Part shown: piece after piece, positions 1,256-51,842 of the stretch
How the letters are laid out: each line of letters opens with the position of its first letter
Position numbering within the stretch: position 1 is the first letter of the stretch
Translations under genes and position numbers: made by a program
Notes under the pieces: generated by a model
What the model saw: only the letters and a program-made list of their open reading frames with translations
Told to the model about the DNA's origin: nothing
Databases searched by the model: none
Assembly (NCBI GenBank): GCA_963665815.1
Contig: OY762463.1
Span: 917,469 to 981,468, forward strand
DNA: 64,000 nt
Origin: Candidatus Cloacimonadales bacterium
GTDB lineage: Bacteria > Cloacimonadota > Cloacimonadia > Cloacimonadales > JAIOQZ01
Direction of reading: 5' to 3'

Positions 1256-1274
1256 TTATCATCCTTATGTGATT

Positions 1275-2351: not shown

Positions 2352-2604
2352 GATTTCTCTCCAAAACAATGATTATGCAAAATTTGCAGAAATTTTCATT
2401 TTAGTCCAGACATTTATTTTACCCTATTAACTAAAAGAAAAACGTCCGAAAATTATAGGGGAATTTTTTTCCTCCCAACTCAGCAAGACAAATTATCCTA
2501 CTTAAAGTTATACTTTATATAGCCCAGCCTATTTTTCTATTTTTATAGCTCTTTAATTACATATTTATATTATTTTAATTGTTTTTTATAAACAAATATT
2601 TAAT

Positions 2605-2620
2605 TGGCACAGAAATTTCT
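2605..2620 (+). promoter_or_regulatory. Candidate sigma-54 (-24/-12) promoter for the glycan operon
   Basis: TGGCAC-agaaa-TTTCT versus consensus TGGCAC-N5-TTGCW. The -24 element is perfect; the -12 element has one mismatch (G to T). It lies 54 nt upstream of ATG 2674, and no TTGACA-type -35 is nearby. Confidence 0.25.
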
Positions 2621-2673
2621 TATTATATTATTGTTTTAAGGAAATTCGCTAATAAACAGGAGTTAATTTAAGC

Positions 2674-4836
2674 ATGGATGCTACCATAGTCGGAATTTCG
2701 ATTTTTTTTGTAACATTGATCCTCAACTGGGGAAAACAATATAAACCGCTTTATGTTGATGATGGTAACTGGTTCTATCAGACTGTCTTTTCAAAAATAG
2801 GAAAAAGGCTTTACTATTACGATAAACACGTGGAAGACATAGAGTTCGATCTATTGAGACCTCATGGATATTTTACCATTGACTGGCTCGCCTCCAAGTT
2901 TCATTTTAAGAATACAGACAACGAAAAGTTCATTCAGCAATTCAAGATGATTTCTTACGCGCTGACCTCTTCCCTGCTTGCTGTCACTAGTTTTTTTCTT
3001 TTTAACAGCTATATTGCCGGAGTTACTGCTGGAGTAATTTTTTCCGTTGCTACCGGATCAGGAAGAACAACTTATTCGGATATAACCTATGCTGAATGGT
3101 TTATAATTTTCCCACTCACTCTCGCCATACTGGTTCTTCATCTGGGAGGAAACGAACTCTGGAGTTTTGCAGCAGCCGGAATCATTTTAGGCTGGTCATT
3201 ACATATTAAAATTACATCTATCGGTTTTGCTGTGATTATTCCTCTGTTCTATCTTTCAGAAAACTGGATTCCGGAAATTGGAATACTGGCTGGAAGTCTG
3301 ACACTGTTGATGTTTTTACCGGTAGTCCTGATTACGATATCAAGGAGCTCGCATAAATCACAAATAATCACATATTACCTGAAGAATTTCTTCAACCCTG
3401 TTATAATAGGAACACTTCTCGTGCTGCAGAAATGCGGAATCTGCAAGATCAAGAAAGGCAATTCTGCCGATAAGCTTATATCTGTTTACGGCACATACAC
3501 AAAAGGCAAATGGGATATCAGCAATTCCTTTAGTAAGGAACTTAAGTCACTGCAAAACATGATCAAACCTATCTGGAAAAATTTTGATATATTTATCCTC
3601 CTCACTTTAGCCGGATCATTAAGCCTGCTTCTGGATTACAACAAGCATGTAATGTTACTGACAATAATACTGGTGGTTAACTTTATCCTGATTCTTATAC
3701 AGAAGAATTATTTCAGACCTAAAATAAATACACTCTGGATGCCTGTATCAATGATAACAGGGTTCCTTCTCACGAAGATGAACTTCAATACAATGGAAGG
3801 ATTACTTATTGCTTTTATTCTGCTTTATGCATTATTGAAAACACTTATACCTGTGATTTCAGGATTGAAGAAGGAAAACAGAGTTAAACTTAACGATTAT
3901 ACGGATGATATCCAGAATCTATTCAGATTGAGTAGAGAAATAGGACAATTCATTAAAAGTATATCCAAACCTGAAGATAACCTGCTGGTATGGGGAAATT
4001 ATTCCAATATTTACATTTATGCTGAACGAAAAGCCCATATGGCATTATATCCGTTTATGTTCCCGAACAATAAGATAATAAACGATAAAATTCTTACCAG
4101 AGCATTTCATAACAAGACAGCTCCTAAATATATCCAGATATTTGACTACAATATTAAAGACAGGTGGAATCCTGACAGAATCCAGATTTATGTGAAAGCT
4201 CCATATAAAGTGATCAAAACATTCAAGTTTACTGATAAAAAGAAGAAAGTACATCCGTTTCACTTGATGGAGAGACAGGATGCCGCTTACAAACAGATAC
4301 TTCTTTCTAAGCTTTCAAGCTGTAAAGAATCTACAGAAAAGGCAATTCTTATCAGAAAACTTAAAAACATTGATATAAATGATTTTGAACTCAAGTATTA
4401 CAATGATACTGAGAGAATGAGTCTTGATCAGAAAATAGAATACATTCATGCTCACCTGAGTAACAATGATAATCAGGCTGTGAAACAAAGCATATTAGGT
4501 CGATTACTCATTGAACTGGGCAATATTGAAGGAGCAATTCAATTGTTGAACAGTGCGTCAGCAGAATATACAGATTACAGAGATTTAATCTCAATGGGCG
4601 AAATAGCCTTCATGCAGGGATCTTTACATATTGCTGCAGACTGCTTCAAGCAGGCTATAGCCTTCAATCCTATATGCGGAGAAGCTTATAATAATCTTGG
4701 CGTATATTTCAACCAGATTGGTGATAGAAAAAACTCAGAAACATGTTTCCGAACAGCTATAATGATCAGCCCGGAATACAACGAAGCAAAAGACAATCTT
4801 AATACACTATTAAAAGAAGTAAACAGGAATAAATAA
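2674..4836 (+). CDS. Polytopic GT-C-like (ArnT/PMT-type) membrane glycosyltransferase with C-terminal TPR repeats
   Basis: 720 aa. About 12 hydrophobic helices in the first ~400 aa. Acidic DD pair (2758-2763) right after TM1, as in GT-C first-loop motifs. The last ~130 aa are TPR-like (AFNPICGEAYNNLGVYF, ISPEYNEAKDNL). Confidence 0.6.
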   Translation: MDATIVGISIFFVTLILNWGKQYKPLYVDDGNWFYQTVFSKIGKRLYYYDKHVEDIEFDLLRPHGYFTIDWLASKFHFKNTDNEKFIQQFKMISYALTSSLLAVTSFFLFNSYIAGVTAGVIFSVATGSGRTTYSDITYAEWFIIFPLTLAILVLHLGGNELWSFAAAGIILGWSLHIKITSIGFAVIIPLFYLSENWIPEIGILAGSLTLLMFLPVVLITISRSSHKSQIITYYLKNFFNPVIIGTLLVLQKCGICKIKKGNSADKLISVYGTYTKGKWDISNSFSKELKSLQNMIKPIWKNFDIFILLTLAGSLSLLLDYNKHVMLLTIILVVNFILILIQKNYFRPKINTLWMPVSMITGFLLTKMNFNTMEGLLIAFILLYALLKTLIPVISGLKKENRVKLNDYTDDIQNLFRLSREIGQFIKSISKPEDNLLVWGNYSNIYIYAERKAHMALYPFMFPNNKIINDKILTRAFHNKTAPKYIQIFDYNIKDRWNPDRIQIYVKAPYKVIKTFKFTDKKKKVHPFHLMERQDAAYKQILLSKLSSCKESTEKAILIRKLKNIDINDFELKYYNDTERMSLDQKIEYIHAHLSNNDNQAVKQSILGRLLIELGNIEGAIQLLNSASAEYTDYRDLISMGEIAFMQGSLHIAADCFKQAIAFNPICGEAYNNLGVYFNQIGDRKNSETCFRTAIMISPEYNEAKDNLNTLLKEVNRNK

Positions 4837-4848: not shown

Positions 4849-7800
4849 ATGCTGCAAAAAGATGATCCAAAAGTAATTATGATTTCACCCGATACAATTA
4901 GATATGCAATGATCGAAGAATTCCAGATCAATGAGTACACCGGTGAAGTACTGGATGGAGACTGGGACAGAAAGATTCAGAAATTTGATGACAGAATAGA
5001 TTTCTATGAATCATTCAAGATGAGACTAAAAGATATTCCGTGGCAGGAAACACCATATTTTGAACGAGTTATGAGGGAGATTAATCAAGGCTATGAAAAA
5101 TGGGGTTGTACCACTGAAGAACAGTTTTTGAACAGATGCATTCGTCTGGAAGGAATCTACCTGAACATGAAAGAAAACGGCTACATCCAGAATCCCGATA
5201 AAGATTATGCAGCAGTCAATATCGGTCGAGACGGAGAAATAATTTTTAATAACGGCAGACACAGAATCTGTTTTGCAAAAATCCTGAATATCCCTGAAAT
5301 ACCTGTTAAAATTACTGTTCGTCACAGCGAATGGAATCAGTTCAGAGAAAAAGTACTGACTTATGCATCAAAACATAATGGAGTTGTTTATGCTCCTTTG
5401 AAACACCCTGATTTAAAAGATATCCCTTCTCTGCATGCAGGAAGATTCCCTTATATTAAAAAGCATATCAATCCCGATTCTAAAACAGTCCTTGATATAG
5501 GGACTCACTGGGGTTACATGTGCAGTAAGCTGGAAGAAGAATGCGGTAAAGAGTGCTTTGCCATAGAAAACGGAAAAGGAACTTTCTACTATCTGGAAAA
5601 AATCAGAAAAGCTAATGAGCAGAATTATCACACAATCTTTGCCAACATATTTGATTTTACAAGGAAATACAACAAGTTTGATACAGTATTGGCCCTGGCA
5701 ATATTCCATCATTTTATAAAGACACCTGAATTGCACCAGGAACTTGTAGATATGCTTAACAGGCTGGAAATGAAAGAAATGTTCCTTCAAGCTCACAGAA
5801 CGGATGAACCACAGATGCAGGGCGTTTACAGAAACTACAGTCCTGACGAGTTTGCTCAGTTTATAGTTGATAACTCCTGTCTAACTCACTATAAGGAAAT
5901 ATGTGATTTTGAAGGTAGAAAACTGTTTCATATATACAAGAAAGAAACAGTTCAAATTGGTAGAAAATCCTTCAAAGGTCTCGGTGGTTTGACAATTAAA
6001 ACACACAGAGAAGCTCCTGTAAAAGAATCTCAAAAGTTACCACCTTCAAAAAAAGTGATGTTCCTTGGATTTGTGAATGGAAGCTATCCACAGATTCTTA
6101 ACAAAATCTATAATAAATACAAAGCATTTAAAAAGATTCATAATAACACAGAATTACTGCTGATTGGTAAAGGAGACGATAAACTTCCTGCAGACTTACC
6201 ATTCAAGTACTATGATATCCGCAAGATAATGCCTAAGGCCAATTTCCTGCAGACAATGCAGCTTTCTGTGAGTATTGTCAACTCTTTGATTGATGAGATG
6301 AAGCCGGATTATATATATATGCGTTACCCCTTAGCAAATGAACACACTGTATCATTTGTGAAGAAACATAAAAACCTGATTGTAGAATTCCAGACCAAGC
6401 AGTTTGAAGAATTCGAGAAAAGCAGTCCTAAGCTTTTGAATTTGGAAAAACAATACTGCAAAGAATTTCTGAGTAACATCGATACAATAAGTGCAGTAAC
6501 AAAAGAGATCGCTGATTATGAAAAAAACATATCAGGTAAAAACATTCCAACATTTATTTTTACAAATGGTGTTGATGTAAGCTCCAGACCAGAGAACGAT
6601 GTGCTTCAAGAAGATATTATTCATATAGCTTATGTTTCCATGTATGCACAATACTGGCAGGGAATCGACAGAATTCTGTATGGAATCAGTAACTCAAACG
6701 CAAAAAACATAAAACTGCACTTCATAGGTAATGTAACTGATGATGTAAGATCCATGATTAACCAGCTTGGTTTGAATAACATTGTTGAGCTGCATGGAGT
6801 AATGGATGAGAAAGGCATTGATTCTATTCTGCAAAAATGCTCAGTTGGAATAGGAGCAATGGCTGTACACAGAAAAGGATTGAAAGAAGCTGCAGCAATC
6901 AAACTGAGAGACTACTGCTCACGAGGAATTCCATTCGTTTATAGCGGAGATGACTCTGATTTTTCAACGAACCTTCCATTTGTACATCAGTATCCTCTGA
7001 ATGATGAACCGCTCGATTTCAGTCATATCATAAAACTTGCAAAAGAGCATAACAATTCAGAATCACGCAAAAAGATAAGAGACTATGCATTATCACATCT
7101 GGACTGGAATGTTAAAGCTGAAAAAATAATGAGTTTCCTGTACAGTCTTGATAGCGGTGAGCCTATTGTAGACTCTGCTGATGAATACAACACCTTAAGG
7201 AAGCTGGCTACAAACCTCAAAGCTGATAAAGGAAATCTTGAAATAACCAAACAACTGATTGCCGAAATGCTAAGGAAAAAAGACGAAAAGATCACATCCG
7301 GTCCTTTAGTGTCAGTAGTTATTCCATATTACATGCAGCCTGAAACAATTGTTGAGACACTGCTTTCAGTATATAATCAGTCATACAGGAATTTCGAAGT
7401 AATTCTGGTAAATGATGGAGACACTAAAGAAGTTGAAGATGTTGTAAATAATAATGCTCAGCTCTTCCCTGATCTTAATCTTAAGTATTTCAGAAAGGAA
7501 AACGAAGGACTGGCAGCAACCAGAAACTTTGGTATTTCCAAGGCTGAAGGTAAATATGTGCTTCCTCTTGACTCAGATGACATGCTTGCATCGGATTTTC
7601 TGAAAGAAACAGTCAACTATCTGGAACAGCACAAAGACATAGATTTTGTATTTACTGAAACCCTGTTTTACGGAGCTAAGAATGAGATATGGGCATTCAG
7701 GGATTTTGATCCATCCTATCTGATCAAGCGAAATATGATGACCTGTACAACTCTATTCAGAAAAGAAGTCTGGGTTCAAACAGGTGGATACAGAACAAAC

Positions 7801-10800
7801 ATGAAACATGGATATGAAGACTGGGATTTCTGGATTACAGCTTCGGAAAATGGATTCAAAGGGGGAAACATTCATCTCCCACTCTTCCTCTACAGACGCA
7901 AGAAAGATTCTATGTTAGAAAACAGAGTAAAGTATGACCATATTGCTAAAGCTCAAATAGTTAAAAATCATCCAAATATATTCATTCAGAATCACCCTCA
8001 GGAGGAACAGCTCCTTAAAGAAAAAATCGGATTGATTCCGGAAGCATTACAAAAAAAGCCTTCCGGAGAAGAGCCTGAGCAAAACAGGAATAGTTTCAGC
8101 TACCCTGACATGAGCAATATTAAACAAGAATTATCTGCAAGAAACCTTACACCATCTAATCAGATGCTATCTGGTTCTAAGCCCAGAATCCTCTTTGTCT
8201 GTCACAATTTTCCCCCGCATAAATACGGTGGAGCTCAATTATACGCTATGCATCTGGCAAAGAAGATTAATGAGCTTGGCATTGCTGATGTAGAAATTCT
8301 ATATCCCTTATTCCGGGGAGAAATCCGACAGTTTGGTCTGATTGAAACAGAGTTTGAAGGATTGAAAGTTTTTCAACTTGCCAAAGACTTTTCTAAAGGT
8401 TTTGAGTTAGCAGTTAGGCATCCCTATGTAGAGAAAGTATTCGATAAATTCCTCAGTATGCGTCATTATGATGCTATTCACTTTCATGGACTGGGGCAGT
8501 TGACTCCTGTTCCTATTGAAGTAGCATACAAAAAAGGAATCAAAACTGTCATGACGTTCCATGAGCACTGGTTCCTGTGCTTCTTCTGGTTCTTGATGTC
8601 AAATCGTGATTCCGAAATATGTTCAGGCCCTGAAAGCATAGATAAATGCACAAAGTGTGTACTGCAAAAATATCAGAGTATACCTGATATCAGAAAAAAC
8701 TATAATGATGTACGTCATTTTATTGCATCCAGATTCGAGTATTACAAAATGATGTTCGATATTATTGATTACAAGTTTGCACCGAGTCAATATCTTATTA
8801 ACAAGTTCGAGGAATATGATTTTAGAGGTATTCAGGTAAATAATCTCGGTATGGAACCTATGGAATATGTTGCAAAGAAAAAACATTCCGGTATAAGATT
8901 CGGGATTATCGGTCAGATTTCACCAAGAAAAGGAACGGATATTCTTCTAAGAGCTTTTCAAAGTCTGAGCAAATCCGAAAAAGACAAACTTCACGTACAC
9001 GGAAAATGTTATTTTGAAGGTTACATGAACATGATTCTTCAAATGATTTCAACAACCACAGGAGCTGAGTATCAAGGTGCTTATACACCTGAAGATCTTC
9101 CACATATCCTTTCTGAAATCGATGTCCTTATTGTTCCATCTTTATGGGAAAACTATCCACTTGTTGTACAGGAAGCATTTCTATGTAAAGTCCCCGTGAT
9201 AACAAGTAATACAGGTGGATTTCCAGAAGTTGTAAAACATGGAACAAACGGACTTCTCTTCAAAGCTGGATCTTATATAGACCTTGCAGAAAAAATGCAG
9301 TACATTTTAGATAATCCTAATAAAGTTCTTGAATTCAGCAATAATATCAAACCTGTAAAAACACTTACTGAAGATGCAGAGTACTACACCAGTTTATACA
9401 AGAAAAAAATAGAAAGATGTAATGACACAAAATTCAGTGCTGCTCATGTAAATAGCATATCCCCAGAAAAGAGAGAACTGAAAAACCTGACTGTACAATT
9501 TTATATGCAGAAGTCTGTTCACTGGCCAATATATGAGAATTTATATGAACATGTGAAACTGCAGCCGGAAGTTGATAAGATTGTCTTTTGTATTCCACGA
9601 CTTACTGAAGTGGTAAACTCAGGGTATTATGATGAAATTTCCAGACTAATTGACAAGGTTGACGAAGTTGTTATGCATCCCGCAGATGCAAATGCAGATG
9701 TTACTTTTATTGCCAGCACTGTACAAGGTAAAGTCTGGAATTGCGGTAAGGTTGTCAGTATAGGTCACGGAACCATATCTAAAGGATTTTTCTTCAGCGA
9801 TAATGTCTGGGTACATAGAGAAAACTGGGTAGACTTGCTTTGCGTTCCCGGTAACTATGCTTATCAGCTCTATAAGAAAATATTGTCTACAAACATTGCT
9901 GCAACTGGCATGCCTAAACTGGATTCAGCTTTCAATAAAGATTATGATAAAAGCTATCTCTGTCAAAAATACAATCTTGACCCCAACAAAAAAATCGTGC
10001 TGTATGCTCCAACATTCAATACCAATCTCAGCAGTGTGTATAATTTTGCAGAAAGATTCCATGAACTTGACCAGATGGGTTTCTATACACTTGTAAAACT
10101 ACATGGAACAACTCTGCCAAGAATGTTCAGCCATTACAGAGCACTTGGAGCAAATTTCAGTAACATTGTTTTTGTGGAGGAGTCAAATCTTGCCTATCTT
10201 CTTGCCGGCTCAGACATTATGATTTCTGATGTATCTTCGGCATTTATGGAGTTTATGGCTCTGGATAAACCTGTAATTCTGTATAATAATCCGGAAAGAT
10301 TCCAATATCACGGTTTCCATGAAACAGATATTGAATGGGCATGGCGAGATCTTGGAACCCAGATAAACAGCTTTGATGAACTGCTCAGGATACTTCCCGG
10401 TATTCTCAGGAATGGAGACGGCAAATCTGCTATCAGAAAAAAATATGCTGAAACGCTCTTGGCTGATCTGGAAGGAAAGGCATCAGAAAGAGTTTGGAAT
10501 GCTGTTAGGGAAGTCTTACCTGCTGAATCAACTGTTGATGTAAGTCTGCTATCTTTTGTGATAGTGGTTACTGACGATAACTGGATTGTTACAAGAACTC
10601 AGATTCAAGCCTGTGATAAATATTTCCGAGTTCCAATGGAAATTGTTGTTGTCAGGAATGGAGTCTCAGACGAAACCGCAAAATCAATGCAATACCTCAT
10701 AGACTACCACGAATACATTAATTTCAGATTAATCGATATAGATGAGACATCCTGGCACAATGCGTTTGAGAGGGGAGTGGAAGATACTTCTGGAAACATT

Positions 10801-12537
10801 GTTTTCACGATGAAAGAAAATGCTCAACTATTCTCAAATTTCGACTTTGTTCTGGAAAAAACCTTCCGTAAAAACCCTGAAGTTCAATACCTTACTGGTA
10901 TATCAACAAATCCCGATAGTTTTAATTTCTATGAGAAATATATCAAAAAAGAAGGAGGAGACAAGTCTGATCATGATTTTTCTTATGATGTTTACAACCA
11001 TTTTAAAGGAGAGGAAGTTTCTGAATTATTCCTCACAAGTATCCCTGAATTCTTTGCATTCAGGAAAGATGCAGTATCCGTACGAGAAGTATTCAGCAGC
11101 AGGAAAATATCAATAGCATTATCACTCCTATACCATGAAAGCAATATGACCAGCATAATGAAATACTGGAATCAGAGAGACAAGATTCCTCCAAAAGAAT
11201 TTCTGGAGAGTATGCTGGATGTGCTTACATATTACATAATGCCTGATCTTGCACAATACATTGTAGACGAATATGTCAGAGGTCATATTGACGAAGCATT
11301 AATGTTTAAAGCCCTCCCTCTTGCATTGAGTGGTAGATACTATGACATAAATTATAAAAAACATCTGATAAATGTAGTTAAAAATGAACCTATCAGAAAA
11401 ACGCTGCAGAGCGACCTTGATCTGATTTCCCGAATTGGAGGAAAAAGGAAAAGCAACACCAGCCTGAAAAATGGCTTTTCTGGCAAGAAAGCGCTCTTCT
11501 ATTTCTTCAAGAACGTCCATATACCAATCCTTGAACCTGTTTACAGGAAACTAAAGGAATTACACCCCGAAATCGAAATCGGCTTCAGCATAATGGAATA
11601 TGCTCCTCAGATCAGAGCAGGTTTTACTCCATCCGAAAGAGAATACATTGTCGGAATGGGTGAAAGAGTATATGCATCACCACAGGCATTCAAGCCTGAT
11701 ATAACTTTCATTGCAGATTCGATTTACCCGATTGTGAAAGGCTGCGGCAAAATTGTCAATATCGGTCATGGTGTTCTCTCAAAGGGACAATACTACACCG
11801 ATACTCCTGTTGCAAGAAGAGAAGAAGAAGCCGACCTGGTATGCGTCCCGGGTAAGTTCCATGAAGACATAATGAGAAAGATCATCTCTACTCCGGTTAA
11901 AGCAACTGGTATGGCTAAACTTGATCCTGTTTTCTCCGGTGAAATAACTCGAGAATCAGTTATCAATAAATACGGACTTCCGGCAGACAAAAAATATATT
12001 CTTTTCGCTCCCACATTTAATGATGAACTATCTGCTCTACCCTATCTGGCAGACAGAATTAATGAAGTCATACCTGACGACAATACAATCATGATTGTGA
12101 AGCTGCATGGATCAACAGCAGAGCATTACAAACATACCATTAGAGAATTGGTCAGCAGGGACATTAGAATTGTCTTTGCCGAAGCTGACGAGTATGATAT
12201 TACACCTTTTATGGCTCTGGCTGATGTTCTTATCTCAGATTTTTCTTCTGCTATGATGGAATTCGCAGCTCTTGATAAACCAGTCGTATTGTTCAATAAT
12301 CCTAAATGGAGAAATTACAAGTATTTCAACCCGAATGATATTGGCTTCAAATGGCGTGATATCGGAATTGAAGTGAAATCGATTGAAGAGACTAAATATG
12401 CTGTAGAACAATGTTTTGCATCTCCTGAATTCAAGTCAGACATCAGAAAGAAATATACAGATCAATTATTCGCAAATAAATATGGCAGATCAGCTGCTGA
12501 AGCTATAATCAATGAGTCACTAACCCTGCTCAATTAA
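4849..12537 (+). CDS. Giant (2,562 aa) multi-modular glycan-assembly enzyme (methyltransferase + several glycosyltransferases + two TagF-like phosphotransferase modules)
   Basis: Uninterrupted 7,689-nt ORF in an AT-rich genome. AGGAG lies 6 nt upstream of ATG. The module motifs are listed as separate features below. Confidence 0.9.
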   Translation: MLQKDDPKVIMISPDTIRYAMIEEFQINEYTGEVLDGDWDRKIQKFDDRIDFYESFKMRLKDIPWQETPYFERVMREINQGYEKWGCTTEEQFLNRCIRLEGIYLNMKENGYIQNPDKDYAAVNIGRDGEIIFNNGRHRICFAKILNIPEIPVKITVRHSEWNQFREKVLTYASKHNGVVYAPLKHPDLKDIPSLHAGRFPYIKKHINPDSKTVLDIGTHWGYMCSKLEEECGKECFAIENGKGTFYYLEKIRKANEQNYHTIFANIFDFTRKYNKFDTVLALAIFHHFIKTPELHQELVDMLNRLEMKEMFLQAHRTDEPQMQGVYRNYSPDEFAQFIVDNSCLTHYKEICDFEGRKLFHIYKKETVQIGRKSFKGLGGLTIKTHREAPVKESQKLPPSKKVMFLGFVNGSYPQILNKIYNKYKAFKKIHNNTELLLIGKGDDKLPADLPFKYYDIRKIMPKANFLQTMQLSVSIVNSLIDEMKPDYIYMRYPLANEHTVSFVKKHKNLIVEFQTKQFEEFEKSSPKLLNLEKQYCKEFLSNIDTISAVTKEIADYEKNISGKNIPTFIFTNGVDVSSRPENDVLQEDIIHIAYVSMYAQYWQGIDRILYGISNSNAKNIKLHFIGNVTDDVRSMINQLGLNNIVELHGVMDEKGIDSILQKCSVGIGAMAVHRKGLKEAAAIKLRDYCSRGIPFVYSGDDSDFSTNLPFVHQYPLNDEPLDFSHIIKLAKEHNNSESRKKIRDYALSHLDWNVKAEKIMSFLYSLDSGEPIVDSADEYNTLRKLATNLKADKGNLEITKQLIAEMLRKKDEKITSGPLVSVVIPYYMQPETIVETLLSVYNQSYRNFEVILVNDGDTKEVEDVVNNNAQLFPDLNLKYFRKENEGLAATRNFGISKAEGKYVLPLDSDDMLASDFLKETVNYLEQHKDIDFVFTETLFYGAKNEIWAFRDFDPSYLIKRNMMTCTTLFRKEVWVQTGGYRTNMKHGYEDWDFWITASENGFKGGNIHLPLFLYRRKKDSMLENRVKYDHIAKAQIVKNHPNIFIQNHPQEEQLLKEKIGLIPEALQKKPSGEEPEQNRNSFSYPDMSNIKQELSARNLTPSNQMLSGSKPRILFVCHNFPPHKYGGAQLYAMHLAKKINELGIADVEILYPLFRGEIRQFGLIETEFEGLKVFQLAKDFSKGFELAVRHPYVEKVFDKFLSMRHYDAIHFHGLGQLTPVPIEVAYKKGIKTVMTFHEHWFLCFFWFLMSNRDSEICSGPESIDKCTKCVLQKYQSIPDIRKNYNDVRHFIASRFEYYKMMFDIIDYKFAPSQYLINKFEEYDFRGIQVNNLGMEPMEYVAKKKHSGIRFGIIGQISPRKGTDILLRAFQSLSKSEKDKLHVHGKCYFEGYMNMILQMISTTTGAEYQGAYTPEDLPHILSEIDVLIVPSLWENYPLVVQEAFLCKVPVITSNTGGFPEVVKHGTNGLLFKAGSYIDLAEKMQYILDNPNKVLEFSNNIKPVKTLTEDAEYYTSLYKKKIERCNDTKFSAAHVNSISPEKRELKNLTVQFYMQKSVHWPIYENLYEHVKLQPEVDKIVFCIPRLTEVVNSGYYDEISRLIDKVDEVVMHPADANADVTFIASTVQGKVWNCGKVVSIGHGTISKGFFFSDNVWVHRENWVDLLCVPGNYAYQLYKKILSTNIAATGMPKLDSAFNKDYDKSYLCQKYNLDPNKKIVLYAPTFNTNLSSVYNFAERFHELDQMGFYTLVKLHGTTLPRMFSHYRALGANFSNIVFVEESNLAYLLAGSDIMISDVSSAFMEFMALDKPVILYNNPERFQYHGFHETDIEWAWRDLGTQINSFDELLRILPGILRNGDGKSAIRKKYAETLLADLEGKASERVWNAVREVLPAESTVDVSLLSFVIVVTDDNWIVTRTQIQACDKYFRVPMEIVVVRNGVSDETAKSMQYLIDYHEYINFRLIDIDETSWHNAFERGVEDTSGNIVFTMKENAQLFSNFDFVLEKTFRKNPEVQYLTGISTNPDSFNFYEKYIKKEGGDKSDHDFSYDVYNHFKGEEVSELFLTSIPEFFAFRKDAVSVREVFSSRKISIALSLLYHESNMTSIMKYWNQRDKIPPKEFLESMLDVLTYYIMPDLAQYIVDEYVRGHIDEALMFKALPLALSGRYYDINYKKHLINVVKNEPIRKTLQSDLDLISRIGGKRKSNTSLKNGFSGKKALFYFFKNVHIPILEPVYRKLKELHPEIEIGFSIMEYAPQIRAGFTPSEREYIVGMGERVYASPQAFKPDITFIADSIYPIVKGCGKIVNIGHGVLSKGQYYTDTPVARREEEADLVCVPGKFHEDIMRKIISTPVKATGMAKLDPVFSGEITRESVINKYGLPADKKYILFAPTFNDELSALPYLADRINEVIPDDNTIMIVKLHGSTAEHYKHTIRELVSRDIRIVFAEADEYDITPFMALADVLISDFSSAMMEFAALDKPVVLFNNPKWRNYKYFNPNDIGFKWRDIGIEVKSIEETKYAVEQCFASPEFKSDIRKKYTDQLFANKYGRSAAEAIINESLTLLN
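4876..5343 (+). other. Module 1 of giant ORF: ParB/sulfiredoxin-fold-like domain
   Basis: VNIGRDGEIIFNNGRHRICFAKILNIPEIPVKI resembles the ParB-N pattern (x-DGhHR-x-A-x-LG-x-IPV). GRHR is encoded at 5254-5265. Confidence 0.45.
5446..5943 (+). other. Module 2: class I SAM-dependent methyltransferase
   Basis: Motif I VLDIGTHWGY (5488-5517), followed by the acidic-loop CFAIEN and FDTVLALAIFHHF (motif III-like). Confidence 0.7.
6046..7158 (+). other. Module 3: GT-B-like (group-1-type) glycosyltransferase region, weakest assignment
   Basis: Rossmann-like alternation. IHIAYVSMYAQYWQGIDRIL, IKLHFIGN and KGLKEAAAIKLRDYCSRGIPFVYSGDD resemble the donor-binding half of GT-B enzymes. Confidence 0.4.
7300..7968 (+). 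other. Module 4: family-2 (GT-A) glycosyltransferase
   Basis: VSVVIPYYMQPETIVETLLSVYNQSYRNFEVILVNDGD (from 7309). DxD-type DSDD at 7570-7581. YEDWDFWI. Confidence 0.85.
8176..9378 (+). other. Module 5: family-4 (GT-B) glycosyltransferase
   Basis: PRILFVCHNFPPHKYGGAQ (from 8182). EX7E motif with E codons at 9148 and 9172 (SLWENYPLVVQEAF). GGFPEVVKHGTNGLLF. Confidence 0.85.
9475..10518 (+). other. Module 6: TagF-like CDP-alditol (glycerol/ribitol) phosphotransferase #1
   Basis: SIGHGTISKG (His codon 9766), KKIVLYAPTFN (Y at 10003), VKLHGTT, MISDVSSAFMEFMALDKPVILYN (from 10225). These are hallmarks of the Glyphos_transf family. Confidence 0.75.
10546..11118 (+). other. Module 7: degenerate GT-A-like insert
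   Basis: SFVIVVTDDNW...MEIVVVRNGVSDET follows the GT2 N-terminal pattern. The DxD position reads GNIVFTMKENA, so no acidic pair is present. Confidence 0.4.
11485..12534 (+). other. Module 8: TagF-like CDP-alditol phosphotransferase #2 (paralogous to module 6)
   Basis: NIGHGVLSKG (His codon 11767), KKYILFAPTFN (F at 12004), VKLHGST, LISDFSSAMMEFAALDKPVVLFN (from 12235). Colinear with module 6. Confidence 0.75.
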
Positions 12538-12551: not shown

Positions 12552-13580
12552 ATGGTTAAATTTTTAGTGCTGGCAACCCAGAGATCCGGAACAGTCTTTC
12601 TGGAATCCATCCTTAACAGTCACCCTGACATTTACTGTACAGGTGAAAGACTTCTTTATAACAATGTAAACTCTTTTATTGATTACTGGGAAGAGAAGGT
12701 TAAAGAAAATAAAATCAACCTGACCCCAAAGTATTCATCAAAAGTACTATATGATTTTATGGATGAGTACTTTAATGCTCGAACAGAAAAAGCTGTTGGA
12801 TTTGATATTAAATACAATCAGTACTTTACAATTGCGAACATGCATTCTGTTTTGCAGAAACACAATATAAAAATTATTCATCTGGTAAGAGAAAACATCC
12901 TTAAGACTCTGATTTCACTCAGGTTAAATGTAATGCAAAGAGAACTACACAGGAAATCTCACACAAAAGAAAAAGTCAAAGCAGTGAAAATCCGACTCGA
13001 AACCGGAAATAAACTGATTAAAGAACTGAATCGCAGAGATGAGCAGATTCAATATTTCAAACAGCTCTTGAGTAGTTATTTTCCATATCTTGAGCTTCAT
13101 TATGAAAAGTTCTTCCCTGAGAATCAGGGAGAGGCTCAGACTATACGTCCTGAAATCCTCAGCAGTGTAACAGAATTTCTGGAAGTCGATCTGGGTGAAA
13201 ACAAAATGTCTACACCATACCGTAAGACCAATCCCGTAGGATTAAGAGATCTTCTTGAAAACTATGATGAAGTATATAATACTCTCATTAACACCAGATT
13301 TGCCCATCTCCTAAATGAATCTGTTCCCAATGATAATTTTGTAAACAGGATTAATCAGGGAGAAAAGCTGTTTTCAGAAAATAGAATACAAGAAGCTCTT
13401 GACTCTTTCTACAAAATGTTCGAGACTTATCCGGAAAATGCCAGATTATGTAACAATATCGCAGTATGTTACTGGCAGCTGCATAATAATCAAAAAGCTG
13501 AGGAGTTCATGAAACACGCTATCCGTATTGAGCCTGAAAATCCTCAATACAGGCAAAACCTGCAAGATATGAAAATATGA
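12552..13580 (+). CDS. Sulfotransferase-family protein with C-terminal TPR repeats
   Basis: N-terminal PAPS-binding-loop-like LATQRSGTVFLESILNSHPDI. IIHLVRENILKTLIS (3-prime PB-like). C-terminal TPRs (NARLCNNIAVCYWQLHNNQKAEEFMKHAIRIEPENPQY). Confidence 0.65.
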   Translation: MVKFLVLATQRSGTVFLESILNSHPDIYCTGERLLYNNVNSFIDYWEEKVKENKINLTPKYSSKVLYDFMDEYFNARTEKAVGFDIKYNQYFTIANMHSVLQKHNIKIIHLVRENILKTLISLRLNVMQRELHRKSHTKEKVKAVKIRLETGNKLIKELNRRDEQIQYFKQLLSSYFPYLELHYEKFFPENQGEAQTIRPEILSSVTEFLEVDLGENKMSTPYRKTNPVGLRDLLENYDEVYNTLINTRFAHLLNESVPNDNFVNRINQGEKLFSENRIQEALDSFYKMFETYPENARLCNNIAVCYWQLHNNQKAEEFMKHAIRIEPENPQYRQNLQDMKI

Positions 13581-14701
13581 GACTACTTATTCTGAATTAT
13601 GAATATCCTCCTATTGGTGGAGGTGCTGCAATGCAGACAAAACTGCTTGCTGAGAAATTTGCAGAACGTGGTCATAAAGTAACTGTGATTACTTCTCACT
13701 TCAAGAACCTGCCATGGATAGAGCTGAAAGAAAACTTGCAGATTATCAGAGTACCGGCAGGACGTAAAAGAGCCGACCGCAGCACAATGCCAGAGATGCT
13801 TATGTATCTGATGATGGCGAAACTCGTCTATCTGTATCAGTTAGTCTTTAACAGACCTGTCGCTGTACTGAACTTTTTTCTTATGCCAACCGGAGCATTG
13901 GGATTCCTTTGCAAGATGTTGTTCAGAATACCCTTTATTGTATTGTTGAGAGGAGCTGATGTTCATGGATTCATTGTTCCGGAACACAGACGTAAACTTA
14001 AGTACTTCAAACCTTTTTCAACATTTCTGGCACATTATGCTGATAAACTTGTTGCCGTCAGCAGAGATCTTGCTGATATGGCAGAAGATATATTTAATGT
14101 AAAAAACGTAAATGTTATAGAAAACTCAGTTCCTTTATGCCATGGAGAGCGAAAAATACCATCCGAATTTACCAGATTCCTTTTTGTTGGTAGACTTTCT
14201 CTGGAAAAAAGTATTGATGATATAATAACAGCATTCTCAAAAACCGAAAACAGCGTTCTGGAAATACTGGGTGACGGACATATGAGAGAGAGTCTGGAAA
14301 GACTTGTTCATAAGCTGAGGATTGAGGACAGAGTCAACTTTCATGGCTGGGTTTCCCGAGAAGAAGTAAACAGCTGGATGTTAAAATCTCATTGTCTCGT
14401 ACTCTACTCCAGAGTAGAAGGCATGTCGATGTCCGGGTTAACTGCTTTCAGCAGCGGTTTGCCAATTATTGGAAGCAATGCAGCCGGAATGAGAAATTTC
14501 GTGATTGACAAAGTGAATGGCTTCATAGTTGAATTGGGTAACCCTGATGCACTCGCAGAGCTGATGATAGAAATCACCGAGAAAAAGTATAATCTTGAGG
14601 AAATGAGTGCAAATTGTCGCAGAATCGTTGAGGAAAAGTACTCAGTTGATAAAGCTGCTGATAAATATCTTACTCTGATAAATCAGATGATTGGGAGATA
14701 A
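13577..14701 (+). CDS. Glycosyltransferase family 4
   Basis: MRLLILNYEYPPIGGGAAMQTKLLAEKFAERGHKVTVITS. C-terminal SRVEGMSMSGLTAFSSGLPIIGSN. 4-nt overlap with the upstream gene. Confidence 0.85.
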   Translation: MRLLILNYEYPPIGGGAAMQTKLLAEKFAERGHKVTVITSHFKNLPWIELKENLQIIRVPAGRKRADRSTMPEMLMYLMMAKLVYLYQLVFNRPVAVLNFFLMPTGALGFLCKMLFRIPFIVLLRGADVHGFIVPEHRRKLKYFKPFSTFLAHYADKLVAVSRDLADMAEDIFNVKNVNVIENSVPLCHGERKIPSEFTRFLFVGRLSLEKSIDDIITAFSKTENSVLEILGDGHMRESLERLVHKLRIEDRVNFHGWVSREEVNSWMLKSHCLVLYSRVEGMSMSGLTAFSSGLPIIGSNAAGMRNFVIDKVNGFIVELGNPDALAELMIEITEKKYNLEEMSANCRRIVEEKYSVDKAADKYLTLINQMIGR

Positions 14702-14702
14702 A

Positions 14703-16544
14703 ATGAAAATAGATACCGCCGCTGAAAAACTGAAAGAGAAGATTTTAAATCTGGATATAAATTCCCTGAATGCATCAGATTACTTTAAAAACTACCTGAG
14801 ATCTTATCAGGATGATATTGATGCCGTAATTCCGCGTTATGTACGGATTTTGAAAGAATCACTTAAAGGTCATAGACGTTCATGTACAGCCTTTCTGGAC
14901 TATGGTGGAGGAAGCGGATTCCTGACGATGCTTGCCAAGCTGTCAGGTATCCACAGAGTAGTATATATGGATATCTCTGAGGAAATCCGCAATGGGGCGG
15001 CAGAACTTTCTTCCGTGCTGAGTATACCTGTTGACGCTTATTATACCGGCACCTATGAGAGTTTGGAGATCGATGAGAAGTTTGATGTTATAGCTAACTA
15101 TGACGTACTTGAACATGTCTATGATCCGTTTAAGGCATTTAAAGCTTTATCTGAGCTGCTTACTGTAAATGGTACAATATACATGGCTTCCGGAAGTAAC
15201 ACTTACCATCCTGTAATCTACTGGATGATGACAAAGAAGCACGAAATATCTGAATATTCAGGCACGGTATCCGGTAAAAAAATGGACGCCAAAGAACCTT
15301 TCTTTGAGATTAGAAAAACAATAATTAAAACAAATTTTCCATCTCTTTGTGAAGATGAAATTTCAAAGCTGGCAGAGAAAACCAGAGGTTTCAGAGAAGA
15401 AGATATCATCTCTATTGTTGATATGTATACTAAATCCGATTTGATGCCATTAAAAGTGCATAAAAACAATACCTGTGATCCATATACAGGAAACTGGGAT
15501 GAAAACCTGATATCCTATTTCAGTCTGGCGCGCAAACTCAGAACGCTTTTTAAGAGAGTTGAAATTCTCCCGGGATACTATCCTGAAGTAGACGCGGAGT
15601 TCAAGCGAACTCCGGATGTTAAGGATAAAAACATTATAAACAAAGTTTATCCATATCTCAGCTACCTGTCTGTAAAGCTTGCTCCGTTTCTAAATTCCCT
15701 GATAAGACTTCTTCCGGGAAATTCGAAGTTTACTGTTGCACCATATTATGTCATTAAAGCCTCTTATAAAAAGAACCATGCTGATGATTCTACCCAAAAA
15801 ATAGCAGAAATTTATGATAAATGGGATGCTTGGAATGAAGATGTAAAGCCCATGGATATAACTCTACCATACACTCCGGGAATTTCATTGAAGAAAGTCG
15901 TGGAATTTCTTGATAAGAAGAAGTTTTCAAAAGAATCGGCTATACTTGATGCAGGTTGCGGCAATGGAAATGCTGTTTTAACAATGAAGAATATGGGCTA
16001 CAATCCGGAAGCGTGCGATATATCGAAGCAGGCATCCGTTGTACTGAACAACTTTAAGCAGGGAAGTGTTACCGACTTACCATACAATGATGAAAACTTT
16101 GATCTGGTTTACTCACTTTCTGTTCTACACCATCTGGATGATATAGAGCAGGGACTTCGGGAATTTGCCCGAGTACTGAAAACAGGTGGTTACTTCATTG
16201 CTTCCTTCCATACCAGAAATTCTCTTTACTATCTGGAAACACTTGTTAAAAGAAAACTATTTCCGAAGAAGTTTAAACATTACGATTATGTGACTTTCTC
16301 TACCGTTTCGGAACTCCTTGATATGTTCCGTAAAAATGGTTTTGCCGTTGAAAGTTTTGATGGAATTCATCCTTTCTGGCTGATTAACAAGTTTATAGAG
16401 ATAAGCGAGTTTCTTAAAAGAAAAGGTATTGTAAATTCTAACCCCTTTGTTAAGCTCGAAAAAATACTGTCCGGACTTATTCCACAAAGAATGAAAACCG
16501 AAATTTCTTATCACGCCATATTTGTATGTAAAAAGGTGAAATAA
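14703..16544 (+). CDS. Tandem double class I SAM-dependent methyltransferase
   Basis: The track start 14691 is TTG. ATG 14703 is preferred (GGGAGA 4 nt upstream). Two motif-I copies are present: FLDYGGGSGFL and ILDAGCGNGNAV, followed by FDLVYSLSVLHHL. Confidence 0.8.
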   Translation: MKIDTAAEKLKEKILNLDINSLNASDYFKNYLRSYQDDIDAVIPRYVRILKESLKGHRRSCTAFLDYGGGSGFLTMLAKLSGIHRVVYMDISEEIRNGAAELSSVLSIPVDAYYTGTYESLEIDEKFDVIANYDVLEHVYDPFKAFKALSELLTVNGTIYMASGSNTYHPVIYWMMTKKHEISEYSGTVSGKKMDAKEPFFEIRKTIIKTNFPSLCEDEISKLAEKTRGFREEDIISIVDMYTKSDLMPLKVHKNNTCDPYTGNWDENLISYFSLARKLRTLFKRVEILPGYYPEVDAEFKRTPDVKDKNIINKVYPYLSYLSVKLAPFLNSLIRLLPGNSKFTVAPYYVIKASYKKNHADDSTQKIAEIYDKWDAWNEDVKPMDITLPYTPGISLKKVVEFLDKKKFSKESAILDAGCGNGNAVLTMKNMGYNPEACDISKQASVVLNNFKQGSVTDLPYNDENFDLVYSLSVLHHLDDIEQGLREFARVLKTGGYFIASFHTRNSLYYLETLVKRKLFPKKFKHYDYVTFSTVSELLDMFRKNGFAVESFDGIHPFWLINKFIEISEFLKRKGIVNSNPFVKLEKILSGLIPQRMKTEISYHAIFVCKKVK

Positions 16545-16545
16545 G

Positions 16546-17763
16546 ATGGGAAAAAAGTTTTTGATTACTGGAGTATCCCTAAGGAGTAAAGGCGGTTCTG
16601 CCATGGTACAGGCTGCCTGTAATCTCATAGGTAAACAGCATAACTACAGTGTTCTCAGTTTCTATCCGGAGCTGGATAAGGCTGCAATATCAAGTATTCG
16701 GGATACCCACAGAATCAATGTAATATCCTATTCAACTTCATTAGGCAGAAAAATAGCTTTTAAATTAGAAGCATTATTGATGCTGCTTGATTACATATTT
16801 GGTTATATCTCAGGGAATAAGCTTCTTGTTAAACTCAGCAGATACAGTAGAGAGATTTCAAATGTAAACGGAATTCTGGAGATTCACGGAATAGCTTTTT
16901 CGGATTACTATGGATTTAATGATGCTCTTACTTCATTTCTGAAAATGAAAATTGCCAAATTCAGTAAAACACCTTTTTTCTGCTTACCTCAGTCCTATGG
17001 TCCCATATCGTCTAATCTGAACAGAAAATTAGCTGAATATGCCCTTGAAAGTACGGAGTTAGTCCTTCCAAGAGGAATGAAATCACTGAAACTCGTTGAA
17101 GAGTTCAGATTGAATAATCCACATGTGGAATTCATGCCAGACCTAGCTTTTGCATTTAATAATCCACTTGAAGAAAACACACTTAATTTACTGAATAAAT
17201 TAAATATAGACAAGCACAGTAAATACGCTGCAATAATTCCAAACATACTTTTTCTGAGATGGGGATTTCCGGAAACTGTTACTTATTATGCTGAGATCAT
17301 CGACCATTTTCATAATAAATACGGATATAAATTGATCCTGATTCCACATCAGTATAATGACGCTGGAACAGACGACAGAACATTCAATCAGGAGATATAC
17401 AATAAAGTATCTGACAAAAGCTGCCTGATTAAAATAGATGATATGCTGACAGCCAATGAGATAAAGTCACTGATTTCAGTTTGTGATTTCACATTGTGCT
17501 CAAGATTCCATGGTATGATCTCATCTCTGAAAATGGGAGTTGAACCGTTTGTAATCAGCTGGGCAGAGAAATATCATGAGATCATGGATTTGTATGGTCT
17601 CATTGAAAACGTTCAGGACCATAAGCAAGTAAATGTTAAAAACTTTATTGATAGAATAGAATCGCGTCTCAAAGTTGAATCAAAAGAACAGATAATGACT
17701 AAGAATGAGGAGTTTATGAAAACACTCAAGGAACTCCGGGAATACCTACGTACGAGGTGTTAA
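16546..17763 (+). CDS. Polysaccharide pyruvyl transferase family protein (WcaK/CsaB-like)
   Basis: PQSYGPI and CSRFHGMISSLKMGVEPFVISWAEKYHEI match the conserved R-x-H-G/A...G-V-P block of PS_pyruv_trans proteins. Confidence 0.7.
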   Translation: MGKKFLITGVSLRSKGGSAMVQAACNLIGKQHNYSVLSFYPELDKAAISSIRDTHRINVISYSTSLGRKIAFKLEALLMLLDYIFGYISGNKLLVKLSRYSREISNVNGILEIHGIAFSDYYGFNDALTSFLKMKIAKFSKTPFFCLPQSYGPISSNLNRKLAEYALESTELVLPRGMKSLKLVEEFRLNNPHVEFMPDLAFAFNNPLEENTLNLLNKLNIDKHSKYAAIIPNILFLRWGFPETVTYYAEIIDHFHNKYGYKLILIPHQYNDAGTDDRTFNQEIYNKVSDKSCLIKIDDMLTANEIKSLISVCDFTLCSRFHGMISSLKMGVEPFVISWAEKYHEIMDLYGLIENVQDHKQVNVKNFIDRIESRLKVESKEQIMTKNEEFMKTLKELREYLRTRC

Positions 17764-17764
17764 A

Positions 17765-19761: not shown

Positions 19762-19770
19762 GTAATATAG

Positions 19771-21123: not shown

Positions 21124-21125
21124 AC

Positions 21126-22421: not shown

Positions 22422-22432
22422 AGGGTAATGAA

Positions 22433-43644: not shown

Positions 43645-43665
43645 AATTTCCTCCATTTATCCAAG

Positions 43666-51831: not shown

Positions 51832-51842
51832 AAGGTTATAAA

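Follow-up and report, generated by a model that had tools for sequence, protein, structure and literature searches.

A conserved 2,562-residue protein of Candidatus Cloacimonadota joining predicted glycosyltransferase, methyltransferase and TagF-like phosphotransferase modules in one chain

Results and discussion

We examined a 64,000-nucleotide stretch of contig OY762463.1 of a Candidatus Cloacimonadales bacterium (hereafter the window), in which the gene at 4849..12537 on the + strand encodes a 2562-aa multi-module enzyme, referred to below as the giant. From the statistics of its open reading frame (ORF) and its full-length orthologues, the giant is judged to be a genuine, conserved multi-enzyme protein, and it probably builds a teichoic-acid-like phosphoglycan, either a poly(oligosaccharide phosphate) or a poly(glycosyl-alditol phosphate), on a lipid-linked acceptor. 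Glycosyltransferase family 2 (GT2) and family 4 (GT4) domains and two paralogous TagF-like phosphotransferases are strongly predicted, with invariant catalytic residues; the calls of a class I S-adenosylmethionine (SAM)-dependent methyltransferase and of a divergent GT-B glycosyltransferase are marginal by profile yet conserved, and are consistent with the rest. The preliminary description of this DNA had counted about eight enzyme modules in the chain. Six of them have catalytic-motif support, whereas an N-terminal ParB/Srx-fold domain is of unassigned activity and one further module is probably non-catalytic.

One continuous reading frame

The gene is the sole long ORF of its region, with 2562 codons plus a stop, an ATG start at 4849 and an AGGAG 6 nt 5' of it; the region holds 0 ambiguous bases and has a G+C content of 37%. 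On re-reading, the uninterrupted 7,689-nt frame with its AGGAG was intact, and all eleven motif coordinates of the preliminary description proved exact. Over 4849..12537 the coding frame contains 1 stop (the terminal one), as against 83-254 in each of the other five frames, and at the stop probability given by base composition (~0.071 per codon) a run of 2562 codons free of stops would arise with a probability of ~1e-82. G+C and G+C at third codon positions (GC3) are even throughout the gene and the same as in adjacent genes, and the linkers between modules are alignable and in frame across orthologues. Promoter and terminator scans gave no signal beyond shuffled expectation.

That the fusion is real had been claimed from the frame alone, and it now finds support in the recurrence of one continuous frame in independent assemblies of relatives. 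The opposite explanation, in which a misjoin, or a sequencing error that removed stops, joined several neighbouring genes, draws on the facts that the genome is metagenome-derived and that repeated glycosyltransferase modules can mislead assemblers. Its probability is minute: four or more independent assemblies, with identities of 43-88% and contigs of up to 1.8 Mb, show the same continuous architecture, and the single in-frame stop, the uniform GC and GC3 and the alignable in-frame linkers all speak against it. A misjoin or lost stops are regarded as excluded because these independent assemblies all keep a single frame, so that the ORF statistics and the four independent full-length orthologues together rule out an assembly artefact.

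Hydropathy analysis of the giant found no credible transmembrane segment, and its single hydrophobic stretch corresponds to a GT-A-like beta-strand. The best reading is that the protein is soluble or peripherally membrane-associated.

Orthologues and a variable cassette

A search of 5.8 billion proteins returned four matches, which are the giant itself, an 88%-identical fragment, a 2503-aa orthologue (54% identity, 99% coverage) and an unrelated 1952-aa protein. In a one-genome-per-species scan, full-length relatives were found solely in metagenome-assembled genomes (MAGs) of Candidatus Cloacimonadota. When the same architecture was sought in related genomes, continuous orthologues were recovered in four other Cloacimonadota genomes: a fully syntenic protein of 2563 aa at 88% identity (locus L002), one of 2503 aa at 54% identity (L001/L003), a frame of 2792 aa or more that is cut short by the end of a 10-kb contig (L004, 1893-10268), and a protein of 4956 aa on a 1.8-Mb contig of a Cloacimonadales relative (L005, 5510-20380).

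Local alignment of these proteins gave a constant order of modules. The first part consists of one or two ParB/Srx-methyltransferase units, the GT-B module 3 and a variable region, and the second part of the GT4, TagF-like domain #1, a pseudo-GT-A domain, a conserved intervening region and TagF-like domain #2. The variable region is empty in L004, holds one GT2 in the window, L002 and L001, and reaches ~2,600 residues in L005, where the insert between the two chassis halves contains several GT2 domains, extra methyltransferases and a WbsX-type domain. L004, besides having no GT2, carries tandem ParB/Srx-methyltransferase copies at aa 153-516 and 550-916. In these alignments the family keeps a constant chassis and varies in its glycosyltransferase cassette.

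The architecture does not coincide with any already characterised enzyme: there were only four word-index matches among the 5.8e9 proteins, and the closest NCBI record, the orthologue, is merely named 'glycosyltransferase', in keeping with the novelty claimed at the outset. A literature search on Cloacimonadota glycosyltransferases gave general genomic surveys only, as judged by titles and abstracts. The unrelated 1,952-aa protein (P0004; L047, 3968-11859), which comes from a sequencing-run assembly, combines methyltransferase, tetratricopeptide repeat (TPR), GT2, WbsX and TagF-like domains, and two IspD-like nucleotidyltransferase genes lie directly upstream of it. Because of this protein, with donor-synthesis genes adjacent to it, giant TagF-containing multi-module enzymes are known to occur outside the Cloacimonadota family as well.

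TagF-like phosphotransferases

Both TagF-like domains that had been recognised by eye were recovered with the Pfam profile PF04464 (Glyphos_transf, cutoff 22.1 bits). The first (module 6; 9466..10533, +, aa 1540-1895) scores 83.8 bits with an E-value of 1.6e-23 over aa 1661-1886, and carries H1640 (nt 9766), YAPTF at aa 1719 (10003) and SDVSS at aa 1793 (10225). The second (module 8; 11494..12537, +, aa 2216-2562) scores 70.1 bits with 2.3e-19 over about aa 2320-2560, and carries H2307 (11767), FAPTF at aa 2386 (12004) and SDFSS at aa 2463 (12235). Among PDB sequences the first domain matches Cps3D best (8qoy, 1.4e-7), followed by TarL (8va1, 4.3e-5), and the second matches TarL, Cps3D and TagF (3l7i). 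The two are mutually paralogous at 33-45% identity. The invariant blocks of the first (GHG, CVPG, TGMxKLD, YAPTFN, KLH and SDVSS) recur across both domains as GHG, CVPG, TGMxKLD, [YF]APTFN, K[LC]H and SD[VF]SS.

The histidine pairs H1640/H1752 and H2307/H2420 are kept without exception across 5 genomes (10 domain copies) and are by alignment the equivalents of TagF H444 and H584, both of which were found essential by mutagenesis (PMC5974469). H1640 aligns with the histidine in the 'H-A-N-V-S' segment of Cps3D, and the histidine of KLHG with the MH of 'LRMHY' in TagF. By analogy with these enzymes, both modules are predicted to be phosphodiester-forming transferases that would use cytidine diphosphate (CDP)-alditol or uridine diphosphate (UDP)-hexose donors.

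Glycosyltransferase modules

Profile searches also returned the GT2 and GT4 domains expected from the motifs. Module 4 (7276..8028, +, aa 810-1060), whose VSVVIPYY at aa 821 (nt 7309) and DSDD at aa 908 (7570) had pointed to a GT2 of GT-A fold, matches PF00535 over aa 822-1010 at 1e-28 (100.8 bits vs a cutoff of 23.3) and the K4CP chondroitin synthase 2z87 at 1.5e-18; it also has the motifs NDGD (855) and YEDWD (989). Where this module was aligned, all three orthologues keep D908-S-D910-D911, which was counted among the catalytic residues invariant in the comparison of five genomes; the GT2 itself is missing from L004 and multiplied in L005. Module 5 (8161..9423, +, aa 1105-1525) is a GT4 of GT-B fold over aa 1126-1500, matched at 2e-28 by the pair PF13439 (Glyco_transf_4, 30.8 bits) and PF00534 (Glycos_transf_1, 99.5 bits), in agreement with the EX7E seen earlier; E1434 and E1442 (nt 9148 and 9172) of this E-x7-E are both invariant in 5 genomes. 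The N-terminal half of the same module contains four cysteines, C1244, C1258, C1267 and C1270, in the segment CSGPESIDKCTKCV (window 8578-8661) that are invariant in all five genomes, which suggests a metal-binding (Zn) insertion.

Module 3 (6031..7218, +, aa 395-790) had been noted as a GT-B-like region at 6046-7158 and is best described as a divergent, GT4-like GT-B. Its Glycos_transf_1 score is marginal (26.9 bits vs a cutoff of 26.4), and a profile search against PDB sequences gave no match; E680-x7-[D/E]688, K685 and R687 are conserved in 6 sequences. An AlphaFold2 model built from 4 sequences is of low confidence, with a predicted local distance difference test (pLDDT) score of 56. It shows an alternating beta-alpha pattern in two Rossmann halves, and its Foldseek matches are all GT-B enzymes, mostly of GT4 (BshA, MshA, PimA and WaaG), with E-values down to 1e-9.

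Module 7 (10534..11133, +, aa 1896-2095) was described as a degenerate GT-A insert at 10546-11118, and it is indeed matched by PF00535 at 18 bits, below the cutoff. The position of its DxD motif reads KEN, KEN, DEA, EAN and RDD in the five genomes and that of 'VVDDG' reads VVRNG, and an active GT-A was rejected on this loss of the DxD and DD motifs, neither of which is conserved. Beyond the closest relative (L002, 72%), its identity among orthologues is 24-29%, compared with 43-55% for the whole protein. The module is probably a non-catalytic GT-A remnant, and its place in the chain is the same in all orthologues, so that a structural or binding role is probable. The intervening region that follows it (11134..11493, +, aa 2096-2215), with a conserved YDINYKK motif, lies between module 7 and the second TagF-like domain, is conserved in position in all orthologues, has no Pfam match and is provisionally assigned as helical.

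N-terminal ParB/Srx-fold domain and methyltransferase

Module 1 (4849..5448, +, aa 1-200) was called ParB/Srx-like from its GRHR motif, and this call now has fold-level support. Its motifs are DGDWD (aa 36-40), IGRDGE (aa 125-130), the GRHR P-motif (aa 136-139; nt 5254) and IPV (aa 151-153), and no Pfam or NCBIfam family, including ParBc (PF02195), matches it at E<=1. It is homologous to hypothetical proteins (217-322 aa, no Pfam domains) of the haloarchaeon Natronomonas, a Trueperaceae MAG and metagenomes. In 13 homologues D36, G37, W39, D40, W65, T68, G111, I125, R127, G129, R139, L146, P152 and H159 are invariant and G136 nearly so. An AlphaFold2 model from the homologue alignment reached a pLDDT of 88.3 and a predicted template modelling (pTM) score of 0.80, and its top 49 PDB matches in Foldseek are all of ParB/Srx fold, with probabilities of up to 0.98; they include sulfiredoxin (Srx), KorB, ParB, Noc, PadC, the serine kinase SbnI, Atu1540 and 1vk1. 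A profile search of PDB sequences gave four weak matches, in which SbnI, the sole ParB/Srx protein (E 1.1), is the second and third and is aligned on the G-x-H-R...IPV segment. The model therefore supports a ParB/Srx fold for module 1, which would be a divergent, unannotated branch of that fold with an extra N-terminal subdomain bearing DGDWD.

Module 2 (5449..5973, +, aa 201-375) was called a class I methyltransferase from VLDIGTHWGY (aa 214; nt 5488). As an isolated segment it passes Methyltransf_25 (27.8 bits, cutoff 27) and Methyltransf_9 (24.3 bits, cutoff 23.8), so that the call is marginal but conserved: the atypical motif I VLDIGTHWGYMC and the acidic E240 are both invariant in 5 genomes. 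There is also a weak PDB match to CmoB (7ct8).

The two modules recur together outside the giant. With two methyltransferase motifs as seeds, a scan of metagenomes revealed ~24 loci that encode the ParB/Srx-methyltransferase module at 31-45% identity. In ~15 complete loci it is a stand-alone protein of ~410-450 aa, with a short N-terminal extension followed by the ParB/Srx domain and then the methyltransferase. The neighbours of the stand-alone units include GT2-methyltransferase fusions, GT4s, UDP-glucose dehydrogenase, Wzy_C, PMT_2 (GT-C) and an AsnB-like protein, a mixed set that favours neither a terminator nor a repeat-unit role; a crude Walker-A/LSGGQ regular-expression scan of these neighbours found no ATP-binding cassette (ABC) ATPase. 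Homologues of module 1 alone also occur in glycosyltransferase clusters, in Natronomonas, the Trueperaceae MAG and a metagenome contig, and in two cases the start of the gene overlaps the end of a GT4 gene. The loci of this family are L010 (7001-7837), L011 (7001-7807), L012 (7001-7726) and L013-L034 (e.g., L015 2857-4113, L020 2836-4131 and L027 2818-4167), and all examples examined are located in glycosyltransferase operons, in Bacteria and a haloarchaeon. The ParB/Srx-methyltransferase pair is a unit in its own right, linked to the synthesis of glycans. In a 2025 survey, the ParB-CTPase fold is reported to occur in fusions with SAM methyltransferases, which bind ATP; the survey also describes ATP-dependent phosphotransfer by the non-DNA members of known chemistry (SerK, SbnI and Srx), and makes no mention of glycosyltransferases or polysaccharides (PMC12704722).

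Proposed function and alternative explanations

Whether the product is a polymer or an oligomer, the donors, the order of action, the activity of the ParB/Srx domain, the topology and the export are what we infer here; the notion of a multi-bond synthase is reached by extension from single-chain polymerases made of TagF-like and glycosyltransferase domains and from Bcs3 of Haemophilus influenzae type b. We assume that the giant acts on the cytoplasmic side of the inner membrane. Module 3, the GT2 and the GT4 could form up to three glycosidic bonds per cycle from nucleotide sugars, and each TagF-like module one phosphodiester bond, hence two per cycle, by transfer of alditol-phosphate from CDP-alditol or of hexose-1-phosphate from UDP-hexose. 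Module 7 and the intervening region may be structural or bind the acceptor. The ParB/Srx-methyltransferase unit may carry out a phosphorylation dependent on nucleoside triphosphate (NTP) followed by methylation of the glycan, either at its end or on the repeat, a proposal made because of the analogy with SerK, SbnI and sulfiredoxin and with the terminators WbdD and Klebsiella O7 ORF6. The product could then be decorated by the operon's sulfotransferase-TPR protein, further methyltransferases and pyruvyl transferase (see below), and a GT-C-like membrane/TPR protein might work on the exported lipid-linked glycan.

This proposal is supported by the invariance in five genomes of the GT2 DSDD, the GT4 E-x7-E, the histidine pairs of the TagF-like domains and motif I of the methyltransferase, by the matches of the TagF-like domains to the solved polymerases Cps3D, TarL and TagF, and by a conserved operon with decorating enzymes beside a giant that has no transmembrane segment. 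A number of observations weigh against it. The structural matches of module 1 agree with one another but are weak, with E ~1e-2 over 58-110 alignment columns, and the model of module 3 is the low-confidence one given above. The duplication of the ParB/Srx-methyltransferase unit in L004 suits decoration of the repeat unit better than a single terminal cap. Pfam gives no TPR match within the giant, the TPRs being on the flanking 720-aa and 342-aa proteins, and a TPR is needed for elongation by Cps3D (PMC11666461). A coiled-coil 'ruler' between terminator and polymerase was looked for by the crude test of Pro/Gly-free stretches and not found, as no such stretch is longer than 48 aa and the longest falls within folded domains; the linkers between modules are 20-70 aa and contain Pro and Gly. 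Among the ORFs of at least 120 aa in the 64-kb window there is neither a CDP-glycerol/CDP-ribitol cytidylyltransferase nor an ABC transporter, a Wzx/Wzy or an initiating phosphoglycosyltransferase, which leaves donor supply and export unaccounted for.

Several of these points would also suit an enzyme that assembles but does not polymerise. Each module would act once to give a defined lipid-linked phospho-oligosaccharide, e.g., a linkage unit, a core or a protein/S-layer glycan, which after flipping would be transferred en bloc to protein or glycan by the GT-C-like/TPR neighbour in the manner of an oligosaccharyltransferase or ligase. The five different transferase modules in place of one alternating pair would fit such a role, as would the GT-C-like multi-pass protein (DDG motif, TPRs) 12 nt upstream, which is syntenic in L001, L002 and L003, and the lack nearby of an ABC transporter, chain-length regulator or coiled-coil ruler. 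TagF relatives, moreover, include single-addition primases, since CpsA adds one glycerol 3-phosphate (Gro3P) and CpsC makes a short linker (PMC11666461). We nevertheless consider single-pass assembly, the main alternative, unlikely. Both TagF-like domains have polymerases (Cps3D, TarL and TagF) as their nearest solved relatives, the GT-C assignment relies on one PMT_2 match among 28 relatives plus a motif, and no homologue of the 720-aa protein stands beside the giant in L004 and L005. Even less probable, in our view, is a partly decayed scaffold in which only the GT2, the GT4 and one TagF-like domain are active and the remaining marginal modules (module 3, the methyltransferase, the ParB/Srx domain and one TagF paralogue) are pseudo-enzymes kept for architecture. 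Module 7 does provide a precedent, its catalytic motifs being gone while it is present in every orthologue, and module 3 and the methyltransferase score barely at the Pfam thresholds, the former without a PDB sequence match. But few parts of the protein are conserved as well as the marginal modules (modules 1-2 are 62-77% identical in an orthologue with 54% identity overall), the residues predicted to be catalytic in them do not vary, and both histidines of both TagF paralogues are kept in five genomes.

A competing explanation of the N-terminal unit alone has more to recommend it and is a fair possibility, although not the one we favour. Here the ParB/Srx domain would be an NTP-gated switch or binding module rather than a kinase, the methyltransferase would O-methylate a repeat sugar, and no methyl-phosphate would be produced. 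The majority of ParB-fold proteins are NTP-binding switches, and 17 of the 28 tested bound no NTP (PMC12704722); module-1-only homologues occur without a methyltransferase, the unit is duplicated in L004, and the operon already has several other O-methyltransferases. On the other hand, the invariant D36 and D40 and the P-motif R139 look catalytic and not just structural, and the sole non-DNA-binding ParB/Srx proteins with known chemistry are the phosphotransferases SerK, SbnI and Srx (PMC12704722), with SbnI being the one ParB/Srx protein among the four weak PDB profile matches. The tight coupling to a methyltransferase in ~15 stand-alone proteins also speaks against this explanation. At the other extreme, it is conceivable, albeit rather improbable, that the Cloacimonadota proteins are 'megasynthases' in which glycosyltransferase and methyltransferase cassettes are gained or lost within the chassis and module content is colinear with the glycan, much as in nonribosomal peptide and polyketide synthases (NRPS/PKS), and in which the ParB/Srx domain, as a new class of glycan kinase, installs a methyl-phosphate jointly with its fused methyltransferase.

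Gene neighbourhood

The giant belongs to a tightly spaced, same-strand cluster that spans 2674 to 23608. A 720-aa membrane/TPR protein (2674..4836, +), identified by hydropathy and TPR, ends 12 nt before the ATG of the giant, and a 342-aa sulfotransferase (Sulfotransfer_3) with a C-terminal TPR (12552..13580, +) starts 14 nt past its stop. Beyond the sulfotransferase, the tail of the cluster (13577..23608, +) comprises, in order, a GT4, a 617-aa double methyltransferase, a polysaccharide pyruvyl transferase, a TylF-type O-methyltransferase, two FrhB-like Fe-S proteins, DUF7033 and a second GT4. The two FrhB/FdhB-like genes, which follow the pyruvyl transferase and TylF-type methyltransferase (window 18391-21123), are tandem paralogues with 2x 4Fe-4S and an F420-hydrogenase beta-like domain. 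In L001/L003 most of the cluster is kept at 44-65% identity, with the part beyond the sulfotransferase inverted, one FrhB-like gene (vs two) and a first GT4 that is matched weakly.

The 720-aa protein, the giant and the sulfotransferase-TPR protein are contiguous in L001, L002 and L003, which represent two lineages beyond the window, whereas L004 and L005 have no homologue of the 720-aa protein beside the giant. Upstream of the L004 giant an asparagine-synthase-like gene stands in place of the TPR membrane protein, and downstream of the L005 giant there is a RIO1/APH double-kinase gene (21114-22799). The 720-aa protein has ~9-10 hydrophobic segments (aa 1-395) followed by C-terminal TPRs, and apart from the TPRs its membrane part has no Pfam match of its own at E<=10. 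There are 57 relatives among 1.84e9 cluster representatives, with the family consensus KPLSEDDGNWFY past the first hydrophobic segment and D29 (of 'DDG'), G31, E141 and K179 invariant. One of 28 relatives matches PMT_2 (5.9e-5), and a family profile search against PDB was dominated by the TPR repeats and uninformative. These features weakly suggest a GT-C-type glycosyltransferase, and the family may be a new GT-C-like one. A few kb upstream of the L001 cluster, and not in the window, lie a UbiA-family prenyltransferase-like gene and a TPR gene (1264-4391, -), an arrangement that recalls the polyprenyl-phosphate sugar donor systems that feed GT-C enzymes.

Homologues of KpsC/KpsS and KpsD/KpsE are likewise absent among the window ORFs of at least 120 aa. 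Elsewhere in the window, a BamA-like Omp85 indicates outer-membrane machinery. An insertion sequence (IS)-type integrase (rve) and two secreted proteins with C-terminal sorting domains of the type IX secretion system (T9SS) lie at 30912-31649, 32856-34415 and 42439-43656 (-); one of the secreted proteins also bears lamin-tail and PKD domains, and from the sorting domains it follows that the organism has type IX secretion. At 51316-53240 a 171-aa ORF (N-terminal half of a GT4) overlaps an out-of-frame 486-aa ORF (C-terminal half of a GT4 plus a polysaccharide deacetylase), a pair that looks like one gene split by a frameshift, real or due to sequencing error.

Comparison with known systems

For single chains in which a TagF-like domain is joined to GT-A or GT-B domains, activity as capsule polymerases is proven, and their products are poly(oligosaccharide phosphate) or poly(glycosyl-alditol phosphate), with the phosphodiester step drawing on CDP-alditols or UDP-hexoses (PMC5974469). 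The giant shares with the group 2 TagF-like capsule polymerases, i.e., Cps1B, Cps3D/Cps7D, CslB, Cps12B and Ccs2 (PMC5974469, PMC11666461), the combination of a TagF-like with a GT-A or GT-B domain in one chain and both histidines, and its GT-A-like domain directly precedes the second TagF-like domain as in their GT-A/TagF-like architecture, although this domain is degenerate in the giant. It differs in most other respects. Group 2 enzymes have ~1,100-1,250 aa, two catalytic domains and one TagF-like domain, compared with 2,562 aa, six or seven catalytic domains and two TagF-like domains here; the order of GT4 and then TagF-like domain #1 is the reverse of their TagF-like/GT-B order; many of them have a TPR domain, which the giant does not have in cis. 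Their loci are ABC-transporter-dependent, while the giant is not in a kps-type locus, the window having no kps ABC transporter or KpsC/KpsS, and their hosts are Gram-negative pathogens rather than an environmental anaerobe.

Bcs3, in which three enzymes act as one machine to make a sugar/alditol-phosphate polymer (PMC10299916), resembles the giant as a single-chain multi-enzyme machine with a TagF-like domain (CroT in Bcs3). It has 1,215 aa and consists of CroT, the phosphatase CrpP, CriT dependent on phosphoribosyl pyrophosphate (PRPP), an SH3b domain and an amphipathic helix bundle (PMC10299916); domain and PDB sequence searches detected no CrpP, CriT or SH3b in the giant. The separate TagB/TagF and TarF/TarL proteins of Gram-positives (~380-730 aa) belong to the same PF04464 family, and two paralogues in one pathway recall their primase-plus-polymerase pairs, whereas the giant unites both domains in one chain in a host with outer-membrane machinery.

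For the N-terminal unit the nearest parallels come from ABC-transporter-dependent O-antigen synthesis and are WbdD, a kinase-methyltransferase terminator (PMC3482155), and Klebsiella O7 ORF6, an experimentally established terminator with methyltransferase and cryptic kinase fused to two glycosyltransferase modules (PMC11231755). Like ORF6, the giant is predicted to have an N-terminal SAM methyltransferase and a poorly annotated nucleotide-dependent domain fused to glycosyltransferase modules. In the giant this second domain has the ParB/Srx fold instead of the protein-kinase or aminoglycoside-kinase fold of WbdD and ORF6, there is no coiled-coil ruler or nearby ABC transporter, and the unit is duplicated in one orthologue. 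With the ParB/Srx superfamily, module 1 shares the strand-turn-strand, the GxxR P-motif helix (G136-R-H-R139), the IPV and the fusion to a SAM methyltransferase, but it is not recognised by Pfam ParBc, has the extra N-terminal DGDWD subdomain, and occurs in a context of glycan synthesis whereas the known contexts are DNA, phage or amino-acid metabolism.

By sequence, then, the giant can be placed in the PF04464, GT2 and GT4 families, and it departs from group 2 in the cis-TPR and the kps locus and from the O-antigen terminators in the coiled coil. WbbB is one of the characterised single-chain glycan polymerases, which have two to four catalytic modules. Among the enzymes reviewed, characterised single chains have at most about four, the most being in Klebsiella O7 ORF6 (methyltransferase, kinase and two glycosyltransferases), so that the earlier claim of more modules than in any characterised polymerase appears to be correct. 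Uncharacterised relatives bear even more modules, as in the 4956-aa protein of L005.

Conclusions

Six or seven modules in one chain would extend the single-chain polymerase principle considerably, and the 4,956-aa relative would extend it further. The more original by-products of the analysis are the domain family of ParB/Srx fold in glycan clusters and the chassis-plus-cassette organisation. The former, which is unannotated, found in Bacteria and Archaea and often fused to a methyltransferase, is a candidate for a new glycan-modifying activity. The latter provides, in a series of orthologues with no GT2, one GT2 and many extra modules, a natural experiment on module content vs glycan structure, and a module-to-structure mapping would be useful for the glyco-engineering of phosphodiester-linked antigens. 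Cloacimonadota are abundant in anaerobic digesters, and the giant and its relatives offer a first look at envelope-polymer synthesis in this uncultivated phylum.

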